A stretch of 64,000 bases of DNA from Vulcanimicrobiota bacterium. Its GTDB lineage: Bacteria > Vulcanimicrobiota > Vulcanimicrobiia > Vulcanimicrobiales > Vulcanimicrobiaceae. The notes below the pieces were generated by a model. That model saw only the letters and a program-made list of their open reading frames with translations. It was not told where the DNA came from and ran no database searches. Made by a program: the position numbers and the translations under genes. Position 1 is the first letter of the stretch; every line of letters begins with the position of its first letter. Positions 38,511 through 63,073 of this stretch are shown here, in pieces. The stretch lies in contig CAWGBN010000007.1 in the NCBI GenBank assembly GCA_963820825.1, positions 160,001 to 224,000 of the forward strand, given 5' to 3'.

Positions 38511-39905
38511 TTACTCGCGGTCGTCGTCGGGGATTCCCGACGATCTCGGATGCTTGAGGAAATACTCCGCGCCGAGCGGTGCAGGGATGTGCGCAAAGGG
38601 TTTGGGTGACTGCGAAAAGTCGAAGCAGTCGGATAGATCGTCCGCGCGTACGTCGGTCGTGCCGAGCGAGCCGAGATTGAAAGCCTCCTCGGTGAACTTC
38701 AAGATGCTGCCGAACTCGTGCTGCTCGTGCGAAATGTAGCGTTGCTTTGCATAGGGTGAGATGACGATCAACGGCACGCGGAAACCGAGCTCGTAGGAGT
38801 TGTATTGCGCCGGGGCGACGTGGTCGTACCATCCGCCCCAGTCGTCCCAGGTAACGAAGATTGCGGTGTTGCCCCAAAACTTACTCTCGCCGATCGCGTT
38901 GACGACCGACGCAACCCACGATGGCCCCGAGCCGTCGGTGATGCCGGCATGGTCCGACGCTTGTGCCGTCGGTGTGATCCAGGTCACGGTCGAGAGGTTT
39001 CCGTTTGCGACGTCGGTGAGAAACTGCGACGGTGGCGCGACGACGTCGGTGGAAAACTGCGGGCTGTCGTACGTCGGCGAGACGGCAGCCGGCGCGTCCC
39101 AAAGCCCCGGTCCGAGGAAGCCCAGATAATAGTGCCACGTAAGCGACCGCCCGTCGATTAAATCCATCAGCGAGAGCCGATCGAAACAGGGGAAAATCGG
39201 ATGGCCCTCGCGCCCTCTTTCGTTAATGACGGGAACGAAGGTGTTCGGGCGCGAGTCGCAGCCGCCTCGATGGAATTCCGGCCCGGGACCGGCGGGGTTC
39301 TCCGACGCGCGCAACGGGGACCCGTTGCTGATCGTCGAGGTGCCGCTAATGAGGTACTGATGCGCCGGAAAGCTGGGCCCTTCGTTCGTTTGGAACATGT
39401 GATCCGCGAACGCGTAGGTTTCGGCCATGGTGTAGTATGGCTCGACTTCGCTCTTGGGAACGTAGGCATACGCGCGAACGTTGGCCGGTGGACAAGAGGG
39501 TTTCTCTCCCGCCGCGCATTGCGAACGAGCGCGATCGAAGCCGTCGAGCAGACCGTGCGCGTATTCGATTTTGAAGTTCTTATGGGTGTGGATGATGTCG
39601 AAGGGTGCCGTCAGCGGCGTGGCCCGTAGTCGTACGCGCTTGCCGCTCGAGTCTTTACCGCTACGTACCGTATCGGCTCCCCGCAACTCATGGAAGAGGT
39701 CGTCGACGCTCCGGTTCTCTTGAATGATGATAACAACGTGCTCGATTTTGCCGTCACCGGCCGAAGTATGCAGCGTCGATCCTGCGACCGACGGCAGAGG
39801 ACCGGCTCCGAAGGCCGCCGAGCTGACGGATGTGCCGCTGCAGCCCGACAGCAAGGCCGCGACGACCAGCGCATCACGTCGAATCCGCTCGGTACTCATA
39901 TCCAT
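38511..39905 (-). CDS. Phosphoesterase/phospholipase C lipoprotein
   Basis: Lipobox LSGC; QENRSVDDLF, GPSFPAHQYLISG, WDDWGGWYDHV, GFRVPLIVISPY. Confidence 0.9.
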   Translation of the reverse strand: MDMSTERIRRDALVVAALLSGCSGTSVSSAAFGAGPLPSVAGSTLHTSAGDGKIEHVVIIIQENRSVDDLFHELRGADTVRSGKDSSGKRVRLRATPLTAPFDIIHTHKNFKIEYAHGLLDGFDRARSQCAAGEKPSCPPANVRAYAYVPKSEVEPYYTMAETYAFADHMFQTNEGPSFPAHQYLISGTSTISNGSPLRASENPAGPGPEFHRGGCDSRPNTFVPVINERGREGHPIFPCFDRLSLMDLIDGRSLTWHYYLGFLGPGLWDAPAAVSPTYDSPQFSTDVVAPPSQFLTDVANGNLSTVTWITPTAQASDHAGITDGSGPSWVASVVNAIGESKFWGNTAIFVTWDDWGGWYDHVAPAQYNSYELGFRVPLIVISPYAKQRYISHEQHEFGSILKFTEEAFNLGSLGTTDVRADDLSDCFDFSQSPKPFAHIPAPLGAEYFLKHPRSSGIPDDDRE

Positions 39906-40128
39906 AAGCCTACCTGGCGGATACGACTTCCCTGAGAAGATCTTGCCCCGAAATCTCCTCGAATCTTCCCAAGACGGGAAGCCTCGCTCTTCGCCGCTCC
40001 GCATCCGCCTCGCCGCGTGCTAGCTTTGCCTAGCTAAAGGAACGAAGCTGACCGATTGGGCTAGAACGTACCAGGCCAGATCCGCCGATCGGCGCCGGGG
40101 TAGCTTATTAGACGAAGGTTGCCATGCA

Positions 40129-41108
40129 ATGAGAGGGCCTGTTCTTGGCTACATGCTAGGCATCGGCGTCATTGCAGCATTGCTCGCGGCGTGCGGCGCG
40201 CCTCGACAGGGTCAAGGTGACACGACGCTGCCGACCGCGGTGCCGCGAACGATCGGGCAGAGTCCGACCGAAGCGCCCGCCAAGTCTTTTCGCGTGTTGT
40301 ACCGGTTCGCCGGTGGCCGCGCCAACCACGCCTTTCGAATCGACATCCGGTGCAGTGAAATATCGGGTGCTCTACAGCTTCCGTGGCCGTGACGGATCGG
40401 AACCGCTCGCGAGCTTGATCGACGTCGATGGCACGTTATACGGAACGACGGCCGAGGGTGGCGCCCATAACGTTGGAACCGTCTTTAGCATCACTCCCAG
40501 CGGCAAGGAACGGGTGTTGTACAGTTTTCAAGAATCGGGCCGCTCCGGCAACTACCCTGCGGCCGCCTTGATCGATGTGAGCGGCACGCTCTACGGCACG
40601 ACGTTGAGGCGGGCCTTGGCAAGGCAACTCCGCGGGCAGCACGGTGACGGTCCGTCTTCGCATTACGTACCGGCTGGTCAAGGATACACGCGCTGCATAG
40701 TTTCGGGGACTCCGATAGTTCGGGTGTGCAGCGGAGTAAGGGAAGCTACTCGGCGGCACGGAACGCGGACGCTAAACATCTTCGGGCACCCCTATCGCAG
40801 CGATACGGCCGGAAATTCTGGCGAGCAGCTTTGATGGAGCACCGACGGTGCGACTCTAGCGGCACTAATCGTTGAAGGGGAGATTTACGGACGACCGAAG
40901 CGCGCTGTTCGGAACCCTGGCCCCGGTGACGGCACCGTCTTTAGCATCAGTGCACGGTGGCCAGGAACACGTGCTGCACAGCTTCGGCGCGAGCCACGAC
41001 GGAACGAGTCCCCGGGCGGGTTTGCTCGACGTCAATGGAACGCTATACGGTACGACGTGGAGCGGCGGTTCGTACGGCAAGGGTACTGTTTTTGCGTTGA
41101 CAGCATAG
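40129..41108 (+). pseudogene. Lipoprotein with tandem LYGTT..GG...GTVF repeats (choice-of-anchor GloVer-like), heavily disrupted
   Basis: Lipobox LAAC; intact repeats GTLYGTTAEGGAHNVGTVFSITPSGKERVLYSF and GTLYGTTWSGGSYGKGTVFAL; garbled repeats at about 40600-40920 (decay or read error). Confidence 0.7.
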
Positions 41109-41114
41109 CGAACT

Positions 41115-42707
41115 TCACTGCGTTTGGACGACGACCATCGACCAGGGTGACAGGGTGAGGTCGATGGAGTCGTTCCAGTTCGCTAACGTCGTGGCGCTCG
41201 GCGGATCCCAGACGTTTCTTGCGCTCTTTCTGTAGATCGCTTTGTCGTACGTAACGACGATACCGCCGCTGCCCGAGCTCTTACCGGTAATGCCGACTGC
41301 GACGTCTTGGGGAATGTGACGGTTGAGATTAAAGAGCATGAATGCGTAGCCGCCCTTGTACGTTCCGGCATAGACACGCACGTCGCCCGATCCCGTGACG
41401 GAAGCCCCGAGCATCCTCTCGCCGGCATGAACGAAATATGAGGCGGCGAGAAAGGCGCTCGCGGTCGCCAGCAGGGTGTTGCGCGGCGATCGAGCGGGAC
41501 GATTATGCGTCGGGCCATCCGAGAAGATCATCGCTCCGCCGTAGTTTTGCATCCCATAGACGTCTTTGCTAAAGTCCCCGCCGTTGTTTCGCGCGTCGCA
41601 GGAGCCCAAACCGACGTGCCAGGTCATTGCCAAGAGACCATCTTGCTCGACCTCTCCGACGGCCATTCCGGCGTATAACGCGCCGACTATTGACTGCGAT
41701 TGCCTGCCGTACGGGCCGAGCTCCGACGATATCTCCCCGAGATAGATCGGTGTATTCGGCTTACCCGCCGTTGCGAGTTCGCCTTTGATGGCGTTGAGTT
41801 CGCTCGTCAGCTGCGGCACGGCGTCATAGAGTAGGAACTGATCGCTGGTCGTCACCCGTTGCGGATAGTAGTGAACTTCGACGCAGTCATATTTGGCAGA
41901 GGCAAATACGGTTGCGTTCCACTTGCTCTTACTGTTCTGTAGATTGGCGTCGATGCAGACGCCGATATTGGGATTCGCGCGCTTAACGGCATCGTAGAAC
42001 GCCGGCTCGTTCGCGGAGTATTGATAGGGATCCCGAGACGACGTACAGCCGGGTTGGCGACAGTCGACCGCGCCCGGTACGTATTGCTCGTTGCCGACGG
42101 TCGCGAAAGCGACGTTGTAGCCTTTTCGTTCTGCGTAGGCGATCAAACCGGCGGCCTCGGCGGGATCGGCGCCGGCGGTGCAATCGGCGTTGCTGCCGTA
42201 GTTAAGCGTAACGGCAACGCGCAAATTCGCCGGGATTGCGATATCTTGCATGAGCGCGTCGAGCGTCGAAGCCGGATTCGCCTTGCCGGCGCACGGCGTG
42301 CTCGGCGGACCGTCGGTGCCCGTTTCCCAATGGTAGATGTCGGCCTGTGCGCCGCCGGGAAATCGCGTGATCGCTAAGTTCGCAGTTTGGAATGCTTGGG
42401 CGATGCCCGGTAAGGTGAAGTCGTACCATACCCCCATGCCCGACCCGAGGTCAGAGAGGTTCATCGCCGGTCCCACTTGCGACGGGTCGATCGTGACGGT
42501 CACGTTCGGTGCCTTCCGGTGATGCTTGCGGCGCCATAGCGGCGAACCGGTTGCGGCCTGACGACCGACCCCGGGCAAGTTCGAGCCTATCTGGGCGGGA
42601 AGTTGCGCACCACCATTACATCCACTAAGGAGAGCGGCGGCCAGGAGCGCGGCTCGACCGAGGAACGATTCAACGGCGGCACGACGCGCGGTATCGACGA
42701 CATCCAT
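41115..42707 (-). CDS. Clan GH-A glycoside hydrolase lipoprotein (GH51/GH44/GH79-like)
   Basis: Lipobox LSGC; RFPGGAQADIYHW, VGNE (acid/base), YLGE (nucleophile); C-terminal beta-sandwich LSPWSMVVV. Confidence 0.75.
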   Translation of the reverse strand: MDVVDTARRAAVESFLGRAALLAAALLSGCNGGAQLPAQIGSNLPGVGRQAATGSPLWRRKHHRKAPNVTVTIDPSQVGPAMNLSDLGSGMGVWYDFTLPGIAQAFQTANLAITRFPGGAQADIYHWETGTDGPPSTPCAGKANPASTLDALMQDIAIPANLRVAVTLNYGSNADCTAGADPAEAAGLIAYAERKGYNVAFATVGNEQYVPGAVDCRQPGCTSSRDPYQYSANEPAFYDAVKRANPNIGVCIDANLQNSKSKWNATVFASAKYDCVEVHYYPQRVTTSDQFLLYDAVPQLTSELNAIKGELATAGKPNTPIYLGEISSELGPYGRQSQSIVGALYAGMAVGEVEQDGLLAMTWHVGLGSCDARNNGGDFSKDVYGMQNYGGAMIFSDGPTHNRPARSPRNTLLATASAFLAASYFVHAGERMLGASVTGSGDVRVYAGTYKGGYAFMLFNLNRHIPQDVAVGITGKSSGSGGIVVTYDKAIYRKSARNVWDPPSATTLANWNDSIDLTLSPWSMVVVQTQ

Positions 42708-43459: not shown

Positions 43460-44611
43460 CTATTGTTCGAGTTCGTGCAGCGTGTTCGTTTCGGTGTCGG
43501 TATAGAACAACACCGTATCGCTGTCGCTCGTACCGGCCGCAAGGAGTCCGAAGACGTGAGCGGTCGCGCTCGTGTCGATGCTTTTGGTGGCGAGCACCTT
43601 TCCCGCCGGCGTCAGCTCCACAAGCTTGTTCCCACCTTTGGTATTCGCAACGACGAGATTTCCGTTCGGTAGCAGGGCTGACGCTACCGGCGCATTGAGC
43701 GGAGAGCCACTATAGACGAGCGTCGCGCACGTGTCTTTCGGGTGAGCGCATTTGAATTTCTTTCCGCCCGGCTGCACGACGATCTCGTCCTTCTGAAGTA
43801 GAGCGCTGGCGGTCGAGACGGCGACGACCGTGTTATCGACCCCATCCACGATATAGAGCGTGTCGTTGCAAAGGCTGCCGGTTCTTTTGTTATTGTACTG
43901 TATTCCCGATGGACCCAAGACGCTCCAACCGGAGCCCTTATTAACCCCGAAGCCGCTTATAACTTCGATCGTCGTCGTTTTACCGCTAACGGGAACGAAT
44001 GCCAACTTGACAATCGCGCCGGTCTTGGCATCCGCGACGTAGATGTCCTCAGGCGCGTACGGCAGACCGCAGAACGCATCGGCGTCGGCGAACGGAGCCT
44101 CGATGTGCGAACCGTAACTCTTCTGGAGCGAACCGTTTTGGTCGAACTGAGAGACGAGACCGCCGAGCATCCCCGCGCCGTAGACGTGATTGTTCTCAGT
44201 GACTGCATCGCCGTCGCATCCCTTTACCTTAGCGCTTTGCGTAAAGGTCGCCGGCTTGGAGTGCGGTTTTGGATTGAGTATTTCGATTGTCGTGCCTTTG
44301 CCGGCGGCACCGGCAGAGTCTTCGAAGTTGCAGACGAGCAGCTGTCCCTTCTTGAGCCCGAAGGTCGATCGAACCAGGGAGATCGCGCGCGGCCCCATGT
44401 CGCCATTCTTACTATCGACTGTCGAGCCGATGTCGACGTCCTTCGTAAGTTTTTTCAAAATCGAGGTCGTGTCGTTTGGTACGACCGAACCCGCGCTTAG
44501 TGCAGAAACTTGCGCTGCTCCGCTTGGAACGGTGGTGTTTCCCCCACACGCCGACGTAGCGAGAAGTGTTCCCGCGATCAGCACAAGCACGCGATTGTCG
44601 AAAGTTGGCAT
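43460..44611 (-). CDS. Lipoprotein, beta-propeller-like
   Basis: Lipobox TSAC; STVD..NGD.GP, GQLLVCNF, LNAPVASALLPNGNLVVAN. Confidence 0.7.
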   Translation of the reverse strand: MPTFDNRVLVLIAGTLLATSACGGNTTVPSGAAQVSALSAGSVVPNDTTSILKKLTKDVDIGSTVDSKNGDMGPRAISLVRSTFGLKKGQLLVCNFEDSAGAAGKGTTIEILNPKPHSKPATFTQSAKVKGCDGDAVTENNHVYGAGMLGGLVSQFDQNGSLQKSYGSHIEAPFADADAFCGLPYAPEDIYVADAKTGAIVKLAFVPVSGKTTTIEVISGFGVNKGSGWSVLGPSGIQYNNKRTGSLCNDTLYIVDGVDNTVVAVSTASALLQKDEIVVQPGGKKFKCAHPKDTCATLVYSGSPLNAPVASALLPNGNLVVANTKGGNKLVELTPAGKVLATKSIDTSATAHVFGLLAAGTSDSDTVLFYTDTETNTLHELEQ

Positions 44612-44837
44612 CCCAAACCTCAATCCGGACGCAGTGATCACGCAGTCGGGTTCGAAGTGCTCCCTTCGTCGCCTGCAAGAAGTACGCTTGACCTGGGGTA
44701 AGACCAAGCCTCGCAAGATCGGCGGCACGAGCCCGGTAAAAAGCGCTCCCTGACGGGCGACTTCTACCCGCCGGGCGGCGCGGTCTCGGTCGAGAAGCTA
44801 ACCTGCGATCGTTTCTACTTAAGAAGGGAGCAGTGTC

Positions 44838-45872
44838 ATGAATATGGCTGGTTTAATGAAATACGCCGGCGCGCTGGTTGCAGTCGCGCTATGCTCGGCA
44901 TGCGCCGGCGCCCTTCGACAGGCTCAGGGTGACCTGGCGGTCGCGCCGTCAACCGCCGCGGCCAATAGCCGATACATCGGTAGAACGCTCTTCGTGAACG
45001 GAATGCCGGTAACGGCAGCGCGCGCGAATCTGAGCCCGCTGCCCCGCTATGCGACGATTCTTCCCGACCGGCATCGGAAGAAGAAACTTGAGTACGTCAT
45101 CAACTTTTACGGCACCTACGCCACGATCTTCGACTACCCGAAGAGCGATAAACAGATCGGTACGATCGATGACGTCGGGGGCCAGGGTTGCACGAACGTC
45201 CTCCACGGCTATGGGGAGAAAAACTTCTGGATCGTCGCGGCGTACAACCAGATCACGGAGTATACGGTTCCCCAGAAGCCGATCAAGACGCTCTCCGTCT
45301 CCGACGGCAGCATGCCATCGAGCTGTGCCATGAATACGGCCGGCGACCTTGCAGTCGGGATCTTGGATGGGCCGTCTACGGGCGATATCGTCATCTACAA
45401 GAACGCGAGCGGCTCCGGCACCTTCATCAAGACGCCGTTGGCCAGAGAGTACTTCGACGGCTACGACAACAAGGGCAATCTCTTCTTCGACGGCTTCACC
45501 AGCGGCTCTGATTTTGCGCTCATCAAACTCCCGCAGGGCAGCAGCCAGCCCCAAGTCATCACGACGAGCAACACCGTGGAGTTCCCCGGCTCGGTCCAGT
45601 GGGACGGCACGTACCTGACCGTCTTCGATCAGTTAACGAACAAGCTGTATCAGTACGATGTCAAGGGCACGAAGGCGACGTTGAAGGGCACCGTATCGTT
45701 CTCGGGTTCCAGCGATTGCGCGCAGACCTGGATCGCGAAGGGCGTCGTCTATTGCGGGGACGCGGGTAACGACAACGGTTCGGTTTTCAGCTACCCGGGC
45801 GGCGGTTCACCGCTTGCGGTCTTTACGGGGAATTTCGACTTCCCGCTCGGCACGGTGGCAGCACAGAAATAA
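44838..45872 (+). CDS. Lipoprotein, NHL-like beta-propeller, carrying a repeat-derived ALRQAQGD segment
   Basis: Lipobox CSAC; YDNKGNLFFDG, FPGSVQWDGTYL, VFSYPGGG.P; paralog of 14296-15240. Confidence 0.8.
   Translation: MNMAGLMKYAGALVAVALCSACAGALRQAQGDLAVAPSTAAANSRYIGRTLFVNGMPVTAARANLSPLPRYATILPDRHRKKKLEYVINFYGTYATIFDYPKSDKQIGTIDDVGGQGCTNVLHGYGEKNFWIVAAYNQITEYTVPQKPIKTLSVSDGSMPSSCAMNTAGDLAVGILDGPSTGDIVIYKNASGSGTFIKTPLAREYFDGYDNKGNLFFDGFTSGSDFALIKLPQGSSQPQVITTSNTVEFPGSVQWDGTYLTVFDQLTNKLYQYDVKGTKATLKGTVSFSGSSDCAQTWIAKGVVYCGDAGNDNGSVFSYPGGGSPLAVFTGNFDFPLGTVAAQK
44911..44933. repeat. REP-like half element inside a CDS
   Basis: CCCTTCGACAGGCTCAGGGTGAC; its reverse complement GTCACCCTGAGCCTGTCGAAGGG matches the intergenic GTCATCCTGAGC...GTCGAAGGA unit at 62675-62707. 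Confidence 0.7.
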
Positions 45873-61356: not shown

Positions 61357-62607
61357 ATGCCGATGCCTGCCACGCAGATGCCCGTCAACGTCGGGAACAC
61401 CGGTTTCATGCTGCTCTGTGCGAGCCTCGTCATGCTAATGACGCCGGGGCTCGCCTTTTTTTACGGCGGCCTCGTACAGCGCAAGAACGTCCTTACGATC
61501 ATGATGCAGAGCTTCATGTCGCTCGGATGGACGACGGTCTTGTGGTTTGCCTTCGGCTATTCGGAGAGCTTCGGCCCCGATTGGCACGGAATCATCGGCA
61601 ATCCGGCCACTTACGCGTTCTTACGCGGCGTGACCCTGCACACGATGTTCACCGGCAACGACGCGGGAATTCCCCTGGTCGTACACATCGCCTATCAGAT
61701 GATGTTCGCGATCATCACGCCCGCGCTCATCACCGGCGCCTTTGCGAACCGCGTCACCTTCAAAGCCTACTTCTGGTTCCTTACCGGCTGGCTGATCTTC
61801 GTCTACTTCCCGTTCGTGCACATGCTCTGGAGCCCGGACGGTATCTTGGCGAAGTGGGGCTGCCTCGACTTTGCCGGAGGGATCGTCGTCCACGCCTCCG
61901 CCGGCTTCGCGGCGCTGGCATCGGTTCTCTACGTTGGACGGCGGCACGTTATCGAGAACAAACCGCACAACGTTCCGTTGATCGCGCTCGGAACGGGCCT
62001 GCTCTGGTTCGGATGGTACGGTTTCAACGCCGGCTCGGAGCTGCGCGTCGACTCGGTCACGGCCTCGGCGTTCCTCAACACGGATATTGCGGCGTCGTTC
62101 GCCGCCATCGCCTGGCTGCTCGTCGAATGGGCTCGCAGCCGTCAACCGAAGTTCATCGGCCTCCTCACCGGCGCGGTCGCCGGATTGGCGACGATCACTC
62201 CCTGTGCCGGCTACGTCTCTCCCACGACCGCCGTCATCGTCGGAATAGCGGCCGGCGTCGTCTGTTATTTTGCGGTCGCGCTGAAGAACAACCTCGGGTG
62301 GGACGACGCGCTCGACGTCTGGGGCGTACACGGAGTCGGCGGGTTCCTCGGCATCGTGCTGCTCGGCGTCTTTGCGTCGACGCTCTGGAACCCCAACGGC
62401 GCCGACGGTCTGCTGCGCGGTAATCCGTCGTTTCTCGGCAAGCAGTTCGTCGCCGCGCTCGTCTGCAGCGCGTGGGCCTTCTGCTTCACCTTCGCGATGT
62501 TGTGGCTGATCAATCTCGTCACGCGGGTCAAGGTCGACGAAGCCGCCGAAGAGCGTGGGCTCGACGTTCACCTGCACGGGGAAGAGGCCTACCCAATCGG
62601 CATCTAG
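61357..62607 (+). CDS. amtB: Ammonium transporter
   Basis: MTPGLAFFYGG, QMMFAIITPAL, DFAGGIVVH, WFGWYGFN, DDALDVWGVHG. Confidence 0.95.
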   Translation: MPMPATQMPVNVGNTGFMLLCASLVMLMTPGLAFFYGGLVQRKNVLTIMMQSFMSLGWTTVLWFAFGYSESFGPDWHGIIGNPATYAFLRGVTLHTMFTGNDAGIPLVVHIAYQMMFAIITPALITGAFANRVTFKAYFWFLTGWLIFVYFPFVHMLWSPDGILAKWGCLDFAGGIVVHASAGFAALASVLYVGRRHVIENKPHNVPLIALGTGLLWFGWYGFNAGSELRVDSVTASAFLNTDIAASFAAIAWLLVEWARSRQPKFIGLLTGAVAGLATITPCAGYVSPTTAVIVGIAAGVVCYFAVALKNNLGWDDALDVWGVHGVGGFLGIVLLGVFASTLWNPNGADGLLRGNPSFLGKQFVAALVCSAWAFCFTFAMLWLINLVTRVKVDEAAEERGLDVHLHGEEAYPIGI

Positions 62608-62610
62608 CCG

Positions 62611-62857
62611 ATGTGTCGTCCTGAGTAGCACGCACCTCCATGTGTCATCCTGAGCAGCGCCCGCACCTGCATGTGTCATCCTGAGCGCAGCGAGCGAAGT
62701 CGAAGGACGAACAAGGGCTCCTAATCCTTTCCGCCGTCCTTGGACTGCGCCGCTTCGCAAAGCTCAGCGTCGCTCCGCTCAGGATGACACGATTGTGCCT
62801 GCGCGAAGCGCAGTCCTGAGCGAGGCGCAGCGCCGAATCGAGGGATCAGCATGACAC
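62611..62857. repeat. REP/BIME-like palindromic repeat cluster
   Basis: ATGTGTCRTCCTGAG at 62611, 62640 and 62671; the third extends to GTCGAAGGAC; inverted partner GTCCTTGGAC...GCTCAGGATGACAC at 62736-62790; degenerate copy at 62813-62857. Confidence 0.8.
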
Positions 62858-63073
62858 GGAAGAGTTGCGACGTTGCCAGCGATAGACCGCAACGGCGGCC
62901 CAGATTGCTTCGACGATGCCGAATGGCCACGCCCCTTGCAGAAAGCCATAGATCGAGCCGAGCACGCACGCGCCGGCGAACGCCAGGGTAAACCAGCGGC
63001 TTCGCGCCTCGAGCGCGTAGGTAACGAGCATCGCGGCCACCGCCAGCAAACCGAAGCTCGTCAGCGCGTTCAT
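62846..63073 (-). CDS. Small membrane protein
   Basis: MNALTSFGLLAVAAMLVTYALE...YGFLQGAWPFGIVEAIWA; ATGA overlap with the antiporter. Confidence 0.75.
   Translation of the reverse strand: MNALTSFGLLAVAAMLVTYALEARSRWFTLAFAGACVLGSIYGFLQGAWPFGIVEAIWAAVAVYRWQRRNSSVSC

Follow-up and report, generated by a model that had tools for sequence, protein, structure and literature searches.

A hairpin repeat translated in frame behind the lipobox cysteine of lipoproteins in a Vulcanimicrobiota genome

Introduction

Why should nearly the same short DNA string lie in frame right behind the lipobox Cys codon of two unrelated lipoprotein genes and recur in an intergenic region of the same contig? This question was raised by a 64,000-nt stretch of the genome of a Vulcanimicrobiota bacterium (contig 7, positions 160001–224000), hereafter called the window. 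The host genome was assembled into nine contigs (2.98 Mb, 62–65% GC; 85% complete), and lipoproteins account for roughly a tenth of its genes. The initial annotation regarded the string as a half-unit of a repeat resembling the repetitive extragenic palindromes (REPs), which might have been domesticated as a recombination point for swapping promoter/signal-peptide cassettes, as a regulatory site or as a sorting tag. In this work, we show that the 23-mer belongs to a REP-like family of hairpin repeats and is translated in frame. Most probably, this family behaves in the manner of the Rickettsia palindromic elements (RPEs), is associated with a nuclease, and survives in permissive coding sites, chiefly in the tether of lipoproteins, with local turnover of its copies.

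Two In-Frame Copies and Their Intergenic Counterparts

The repeat occurs in two forms. The short form consists of a 5′ box CCTTCGAC, a 3-nt spacer and a 3′ box CTCAGGRTGAC; in the long forms, an extra inner hairpin of 16–43 nt lies between the boxes, and the sequence of this inner stem-loop varies from copy to copy. The window contains the following copies and host features:

44838–45872, plus strand: lipoprotein gene, an open reading frame (ORF) of 344 aa; genus-restricted, many-copy family of predicted beta-propeller lipoproteins
44838–44903, plus strand: its signal peptide with the lipobox L-C-S-A-C; lipidated Cys22 codon TGC at 44901–44903
44910–44933, plus strand: perfect short-form copy GCCCTTCGACAGGCTCAGGGTGAC, 0 mismatches, in frame, 3 residues past the Cys
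40129–40392, plus strand: 87-aa ORF with the signal peptide and lipobox (ending L-A-A-C) of a broken GloVer-repeat lipoprotein gene; Cys22 codon TGC at 40192–40194
40198–40221, plus strand: decayed short-form copy GCGCCTCGACAGGGTCAAGGTGAC, 4 mismatches to the 23-mer, 1 residue past the Cys
40172–40834, plus strand: GloVer tandem-repeat body (TIGR03803, 71.4 bits vs. a cut-off of 44), in a frame that differs from that of its own signal peptide
62615–62706, minus strand: intergenic reverse copies with three 3′ boxes (62615, 62644, 62675), the last belonging to a complete long form with its 5′ box at 62699–62706
62738–62788, plus strand: intergenic long-form element, 31 nt from the reverse copies

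In the 344-aa gene, the Cys22 codon is followed by GCC GGC and then by GCC CTT CGA CAG GCT CAG GGT GAC, which encodes ALRQAQGD; in the GloVer gene, the Cys codon is followed by GGC and then by GCG CCT CGA CAG GGT CAA GGT GAC, which encodes APRQGQGD. The two copies, both described correctly in the initial annotation, are thus read in an identical frame relative to the motif and lie 1–3 codons behind the lipobox Cys. The reverse complement GTCATCCTGAGC ... GTCGAAGGA was found at 62644–62706, and the boxes are present at 62.6–62.8 kb in both orientations, which bears out the proposed identity of the coding stretch with the intergenic repeat. The term half-unit has to be abandoned, as the 23-mer is the complete short form and the copies at 62.7 kb are long forms with the additional inner hairpin. 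The intergenic copies (62615–62788) form a head-to-head doublet in which the reverse copies precede the forward one, just as around the nuclease gene of sister species described below, but with no gene in between. The doublet sits past the end of the neighbouring upstream gene, behind its stop codon; from its C-terminal residues, this gene was taken by eye for a putative ammonium transporter gene.

Eighteen family members share the signal peptide of the 344-aa lipoprotein, whether or not they carry the element, and its mature part shows 66–84% identity to 17 relatives. No Pfam or NCBIfam family matched the protein. An AlphaFold model built on a shallow alignment (mean predicted local distance difference test score, pLDDT, 55.9) is all-beta from residue 129, and its top PDB matches in Foldseek were NHL-type beta-propellers (PknD 1rwi, E 6.6e-8, TM 0.42/0.54). 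The NHL-like character proposed initially is thus backed by a low-confidence model and not by a family match. Residues 20–50, insert included, were modelled as coil with pLDDT of 20–27; since residues 1–117 all have pLDDT below 50, the model is consistent with a flexible tether and too weak to prove disorder. As for the GloVer-type lipoprotein, the GloVer repeats are indeed there, but the gene is broken, with the repeats out of frame with the signal peptide, and represents either a pseudogene or the outcome of assembly indel errors. The repeat pattern of this gene (40129–40834) is lost again towards its 3′ end.

A trivial explanation would be a chance resemblance or an annotation artefact, in which the true start codon lies downstream and the repeat is intergenic. 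Di Nocera et al. 2013 (PMC3733652) do caution that many of the REPs described as “intragenic” at N-termini result from misannotation. Here, however, a signal peptide with a lipobox upstream and a conserved mature domain downstream are read in one frame, element-free orthologues join the two parts directly, and shuffled control motifs gave 0–1 matches in the genome, making such an artefact hardly credible.

The Repeat Family in the Host Genome

A catalogue based on regular expressions (both boxes, one mismatch allowed per box, spacer of 0–45 nt) comprised 76 copies in the host genome; 19 of them are short forms with the 3-nt spacer, and most others have a spacer of 16–43 nt. When the genome was searched with the 23-mer at up to four mismatches, 27 matches were obtained (4, 5, 5, 5 and 8 at 0, 1, 2, 3 and 4 mismatches, respectively), and the controls, one reversed and six shuffled motifs, gave 0–1 matches each. 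Eight matches at four mismatches vs. 0–1 in the controls indicate that the copy at 40198 is most likely real and decayed.

The copies carry 7-bp inverted arms, GTCAYCC ... GGRTGAC, and the 5′ flank ahead of the box shows the logo TCGC/TCAY. Variation in the arms is compensatory (GTCACCC/GGGTGAC, GTCGCCC/GGGCGAC, GTCATGC/GCATGAC), and a full short form folds with −6.3 kcal/mol. The inner stems of the long forms gave weak z-scores against shuffled sequences (mean −0.39; 5 of 53 below −2). A search of 62300–63000 against Rfam returned a sub-threshold miRNA match alone (19.7 bits vs. 74, E 0.17), i.e., no known RNA family. The flanks of the copies contain no conserved target sequence apart from the element's own arms.

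At two sites (contig 8, 652,500–652,560; contig 4, 21,740–21,800), a repeat copy adjoins a string resembling the 3′ half of a tRNA. ARAGORN detected no tRNA in the four loci inspected, and the idea that copies adjoin tRNA genes was rejected; the extra downstream sequence shared by the two sites may belong to a longer composite repeat.

Coding Copies Cluster behind the Lipobox

A copy was counted as lipobox-associated when the frame was open across the element, an n-/h-region and a lipobox ended at most 14 aa upstream, and at least 150 aa with a positive codon score followed downstream. By this rule, 11 of the 76 copies start at most 14 aa past a lipobox Cys in a long coding ORF, 5 lie elsewhere in coding sequences, and about 60 are found outside coding ORFs. 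Hence the distances of in-gene copies to the lipobox Cys are neither random nor a matter of the two window genes: 11 of 16 fall into a target zone (385 lipoprotein candidates × 14 residues) that makes up 0.6% of the coding sequence (binomial 1.6e-21, or 8e-11 after collapsing paralogues to 6 of 13). In the host genome, the short forms behind a lipobox begin 0–3 residues past the Cys. Pattern scans of two sister genomes gave 47 and 19 matches (controls 0), and each of these genomes has a post-lipobox copy (L261, L264) among 30 loci fetched.

The lipoprotein hosts belong to at least five unrelated families, namely, the propeller family of the window, the GloVer protein, a Gly-rich protein, a ZnuA-type binding protein (PF01297, 1.5e-72) and phosphoesterases, the latter in two groups of PF04185. 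Further decayed post-lipobox copies escaped the regular expression (window 40198; contig 6, 615215; contig 8, 370042 and 360588). The copies in other coding sequences reside in isoleucyl-tRNA synthetase (IleRS), a BNR/sortilin-like protein and two unnamed long ORFs (contig 2, 263959; contig 6, 705351); the fifth match, VILSDYAKG within a sugar-kinase-like protein, probably arose by chance.

The BNR/sortilin-like copy (contig 6, about 560,850) lies in an ORF with a weak match to F510_1955 glycosylhydrolase. More in-frame copies were noticed in non-lipoprotein hosts named by eye: a leucyl-tRNA synthetase-like gene (contig 6, about 398,200), an amidohydrolase-like gene (contig 2, about 220,940) and a binding-protein-like gene (contig 8, about 557,560). 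In the window, three lipobox genes on the minus strand have no repeat copy: a PF04185-like phosphoesterase gene (38511–40004) and the ORFs 41115–42707 and 43460–44728.

Presence and Absence among Relatives

The family of the 344-aa protein was found in 19 of 31 genomes searched: the host and all 18 sister species gave matches, whereas none of the 12 genomes from outside the genus did. It represents an unusually large lineage-specific expansion, the host genome having 34 matches and the sister genomes 8–69 each. We compared 20 family members from 18 loci (two distant loci gave no row). The element is present at exactly the same site in 8 of them and absent from 12, the difference being 21 nt, and even the closest relatives of the window gene are split in this respect, one possessing the element (G005) and two lacking it (G002 and G018). 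Both junctions are identical in all eight carriers. The codon 3′ of the element is ATG, CTG or ATA in carriers, and mostly TCN, also CCG, in element-free alleles.

In a maximum-likelihood tree of the mature parts, in which 11 of the 17 inner branches are poorly supported, the element state changes at least three times on well-supported branches and six times by parsimony; its clustering does not exceed that of randomly permuted labels (230 of 500 permutations were as low). The signal peptides track the protein body and not the element: that of L010 is like L008, and that of L012 is like L011, and L008 and L010 form a sister pair with alike signal peptides that differs just by the element. As the signal peptides follow the body and are like those found in orthologues and paralogues that lack the element, they argue against the initial idea of a recombination point that swaps promoter/signal-peptide cassettes. 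Identical junctions along with a scattered distribution would be best accounted for by short conversion tracts between paralogues, and gene conversion may also be the source of the next-codon pattern.

Single-copy genes provided a second comparison. In the tether of the ZnuA-type lipoprotein from 30 genomes of the genus, a clear copy was found in 16, a partial one in 3 and none in 11. The tethers are read as LRQAQGD in ten cases, as the SFDSAQDD type in three and as PST.LRVT in three, and they include tandem partial duplications (L028, L041) and one half copy (L045). IleRS possesses a hotspot between SPSIYVRF and WTTTPWT, where 8 of 28 rows from 30 genus loci have clear copies; these comprise short and long forms, each in both orientations, and also pairs of copies. 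Outside the genus, in other genera of the family and order, the IleRS loop is a plain F-G-[LV] in nine rows and contains a short form in one (L297); three loci of this set gave no row. The extreme case is L308 (G072, contig 2) from a sister genome, where 4–5 copies in both orientations fill the IleRS loop and add about 50 residues to this essential enzyme.

Some IleRS alleles with DVMH in the loop retain the GTCATGC arm, and one of them, L294, has its two arms joined after loop loss, which marks these alleles as remnants of copies and not as unoccupied sites. A native GTCATG in IleRS, serving as a pre-existing target, was considered and rejected in view of the F-G-[LV] loops without GTCATG and the decayed DVMH alleles. 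The picture for IleRS is one of a single seeding or a few, followed by local duplication, inversion, decay and loss.

A Match at the DNA Level

Although the host genome has a third-codon-position GC content of 0.79, the element keeps rare codons: CTT, CGA, GCT and GGT make up 8%, 11%, 6% and 13% of their synonymous sets, respectively. The probability of exactly these codons, given ALRQAQGD, is 6e-6. In nine ZnuA orthologues with the LRQAQGD frame, third-position diversity is 0.21 in the 4 element columns vs. 0.40 in 137 gene columns, a modest difference (resampling p = 0.048), indicating that the synonymous sites of the motif do not vary freely. The retention of rare codons and the exact DNA shared with intergenic copies allow us to conclude that the match exists at the DNA level and does not reflect peptide convergence.

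Sorting signals in other bacteria lie next to the lipidated Cys. One might regard an LRQAQGD-type peptide as a selected spacer, or as a sorting or processing signal past the lipid anchor, given its position beside the Cys, its hydrophilic nature with an acidic last residue, and the dominance of one frame among the short-form copies in genes. However, the motif occurs in only a handful of the 385 lipoprotein candidates, orthologues without it exist, as the ZnuA set demonstrates, and the rare codons have been kept. Moreover, at least three reading frames and both orientations are occupied. Behind other lipoboxes, the repeat is read as VTLSLSKG and VILS...VEG in the reverse orientation and as SFD...AQDD in a long form, so that unrelated, partly hydrophobic peptides appear at the same place, and the LRQAQGD peptide itself is inserted in the cytoplasmic IleRS. 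The other frames and orientations, together with the element-free orthologues, speak against the post-lipobox sorting tag suggested initially, and a function of the peptide appears very improbable.

We assign an equally low probability to a function of the nucleic acid, such as slower translation or regulator binding at the hairpin or the rare-codon cluster past the signal peptide. The somewhat conserved synonymous sites and the rare codons would fit this, as would the co-variation of the arms even in a coding copy (GTCATGC/GCATGAC in IleRS), but the short forms in lipoprotein genes have lost most of the 5′ arm (GGCGCCC for GTCACCC) and fold weakly (−1.6 kcal/mol). Furthermore, copies decay and disappear freely, and a recent origin or conversion would explain the conservation equally well. 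The term “domesticated” is not supported, as the copies decay, lose parts or duplicate in tandem in a manner suggestive of neutral turnover.

A GIY-YIG Nuclease Gene Flanked by the Repeat

In a species collection, at least 129 loci contained the exact 22-mer. Among the matches listed, 30 of 80 came from Vulcanimicrobiota/Eremiobacteraeota or genera of that group, and the remaining ones bore more than ten other phylum-level labels, including Bacteroidota, Verrucomicrobiota, Nitrospirota, Patescibacteria, Acidobacteriota, Chloroflexota and Rickettsiales. The copies among these matches are mostly intergenic and often tandem, and 1 of 150 lies behind a lipobox (L115, a Vulcanimicrobiota record).

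In five other genomes, one of them from Bacteroidota, four of six small GIY-YIG genes are bracketed by the repeat, with a reverse copy on the left and a forward copy on the right. Within the genus, 27 loci have a close homologue of this nuclease (54–75% identity); copies stand on both sides of the gene in 24, on one side in 2 and on neither in 1, and the spacer class is usually alike on both sides. The nuclease ORFs of sister species and other phyla encode single-domain proteins of 100–103 aa (PF01541, E 1.6e-15) with no NCBIfam family; the nearest PDB chains are the UPF0213 proteins 1ywl (E 2.5e-12) and 1zg2. Three nuclease ORFs end inside the flanking repeat, so that their final residues and stop codon are repeat-derived:

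L220, 1492–1803: nuclease ORF ending ..PSTGSG*
L221, 1486–1788: nuclease ORF ending ..PSTSSG*
L219, 1417–1728: nuclease ORF ending ..HPEPVEG*

Three distant YhbQ-like genes, including that of the host genome, have no flanking copies. The small GIY-YIG gene of the host genome (contig 9, 251 kb) was rejected as the cognate one, as no repeat lies within 1.5 kb of it. The initial suggestion to look for a cognate REP-associated tyrosine transposase (RAYT) or GIY-YIG gene had a mixed outcome: the GIY-YIG gene exists in sister species, while the RAYT domain (Y1 transposase, PF01797) gave 0 matches in the host genome, the sole genome searched for targets (control genomes matched 6/14). DUF559 (PF04480) likewise had no match in the host genome.

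The association with a nuclease brings up targeted, homing-like maintenance, whereby the nuclease would nick the hairpin and repair from a paralogue or another copy would move the element. The 5′ ends of expanded lipoprotein families would then be prone to recombination, serving diversification or the control of exchange, as proposed for the Ssn repeats near surface-protein genes of Neisseria. Several facts are in line with this idea: the element state is scattered on the tree of the window's family and yet the junctions are identical in 8 of 8 carriers, the sister pair L008/L010 differs just by the element, and copies lie 0–3 residues from the Cys in unrelated families. In addition, the Ssn paper (Chenal et al. 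2025, PMC11893778) reports that its repeats cluster beside membrane-protein genes and considers effects on recombination. On the other hand, the single-copy ZnuA and IleRS genes behave alike without paralogues as partners, the flanks show no conserved target, and the nuclease was not found in the host assembly; the tree is poorly supported in most of its inner branches. We consider homing-like maintenance unlikely. It also seems doubtful that the small GIY-YIG nuclease uses the repeat behind the lipobox for nicking or recombination and that the repeat has been kept there for this purpose. If it were so, the 5′ ends of expanded surface-lipoprotein families would carry a nuclease-addressable switch for short-patch conversion, or for limiting replacement by foreign DNA, and would form the coding-sequence counterpart of the Ssn-repeat clusters beside surface-protein genes in Neisseria. 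Should the nuclease act on coding copies, programmed DNA nicking would take place in the lipoprotein genes.

Discussion

Taken together, the results make it probable that a nuclease-associated hairpin repeat comparable to the RPEs survives in permissive coding sites, chiefly in the lipoprotein tether, and turns over locally. Under this explanation, the repeat, whose copies are normally intergenic, would owe its mobility to the nuclease, and in the genus studied some copies would have landed inside genes in frame, adding 8–15 residues in RPE fashion. Purifying selection would let them persist just where the added residues are harmless, that is, mainly in the unstructured tether past the lipidated Cys, and also in a surface loop of IleRS. 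A site once seeded would stay active: its copies would undergo duplication, inversion, partial deletion or loss, and the states with and without the element would pass between the paralogues of multi-copy lipoprotein families, presumably by short-patch gene conversion.

Several points weigh against this explanation. Among the short-form in-gene copies of the host genome, the LRQAQGD frame prevails over the reversed one by 8 to 1, which suggests some filter on the encoded peptide or on orientation. A tolerance filter alone may be insufficient to explain the closeness to the Cys, and a preference for the target is possible. The difference in the codon next to the element means that simple independent deletions would not recreate the pattern in the window's family. 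The 85%-complete host assembly yielded the distant YhbQ-like gene alone (41% identity) and no cognate nuclease, so that activity in this genome is conjectural. As to the counts, the 385 lipoprotein candidates come from a crude regular expression and include false positives, the gene calls are based on ORF and codon-score heuristics, and the numbers are inflated by paralogy, the phosphoesterase copies of contig 8 probably stemming from few events.

If our explanation holds, the coding copies would provide a natural map of where bacterial proteins accept 8–50 extra residues. They also serve as a warning for annotation: conserved-looking post-lipobox peptides in this phylum would be repeat DNA rather than signals. 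Literature searches for the repeat strings and the encoded peptides revealed nothing related. In-frame selfish palindromes are already known, and what is newly seen here is a preferred niche right behind the lipid-anchor Cys, for which we found no precedent in the literature.

The precedent of the RPEs and intragenic REPs, invoked from the start, proved to be apt. According to Di Nocera et al. 2013 (PMC3733652), these too are families of short palindromes, mostly intergenic and variable in number from genome to genome, some copies of which lie in frame in functional genes, including those for replication and translation, and add a short peptide at tolerated sites. The family described here is likewise multi-copy, mainly intergenic and built as a hairpin; it has orthologues with and without the element, and it is read in frame in intact host genes (the 44910 gene of the window, ZnuA and IleRS), the exception being the 40198 copy in the frameshifted gene. 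It differs in its TGTCAYCC arm, which replaces the GTAG or CGTC tag of the REPs in that paper, in its tie to a GIY-YIG gene rather than to a RAYT, and in its main coding niche, the tether past the lipobox Cys; the word “lipoprotein” does not occur in the text of that paper.

With the REP/REPIN systems mobilised by RAYTs, the family shares the hairpin repeats, their head-to-head doublets and arrays, and the location of repeats on both sides of the gene for the presumed mobilising enzyme. Unlike in those systems, the flanked gene encodes a GIY-YIG nuclease, and the host genome has no Y1 transposase (PF01797).

Closest in its gene arrangement is the Ssn system (Chenal et al. 2025, PMC11893778), in which GIY-YIG nucleases specific for single strands are accompanied by the hairpin repeats NTS/SRM. 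The two are not alike in every respect: none of our 76 copies (with 12-nt flanks, on both strands) fits the published SRM pattern, the element strings were not found in 12 of the 14 supplementary files of that paper, and the Ssn repeats are reported to lie rarely in genes (2% in N. meningitidis), as against 16 of 76 coding copies here. Still, a gene for a single-domain nuclease of about 100 residues with inverted hairpin repeats on both sides, a GTCAY tag, tens of further copies in the genome and a distribution across phyla are common to both, so that the arrangement of nuclease and repeat in our family resembles the Ssn system. A repeat identical across many phyla, tied to a small GIY-YIG nuclease and missed by the published Ssn pattern, would widen that system.

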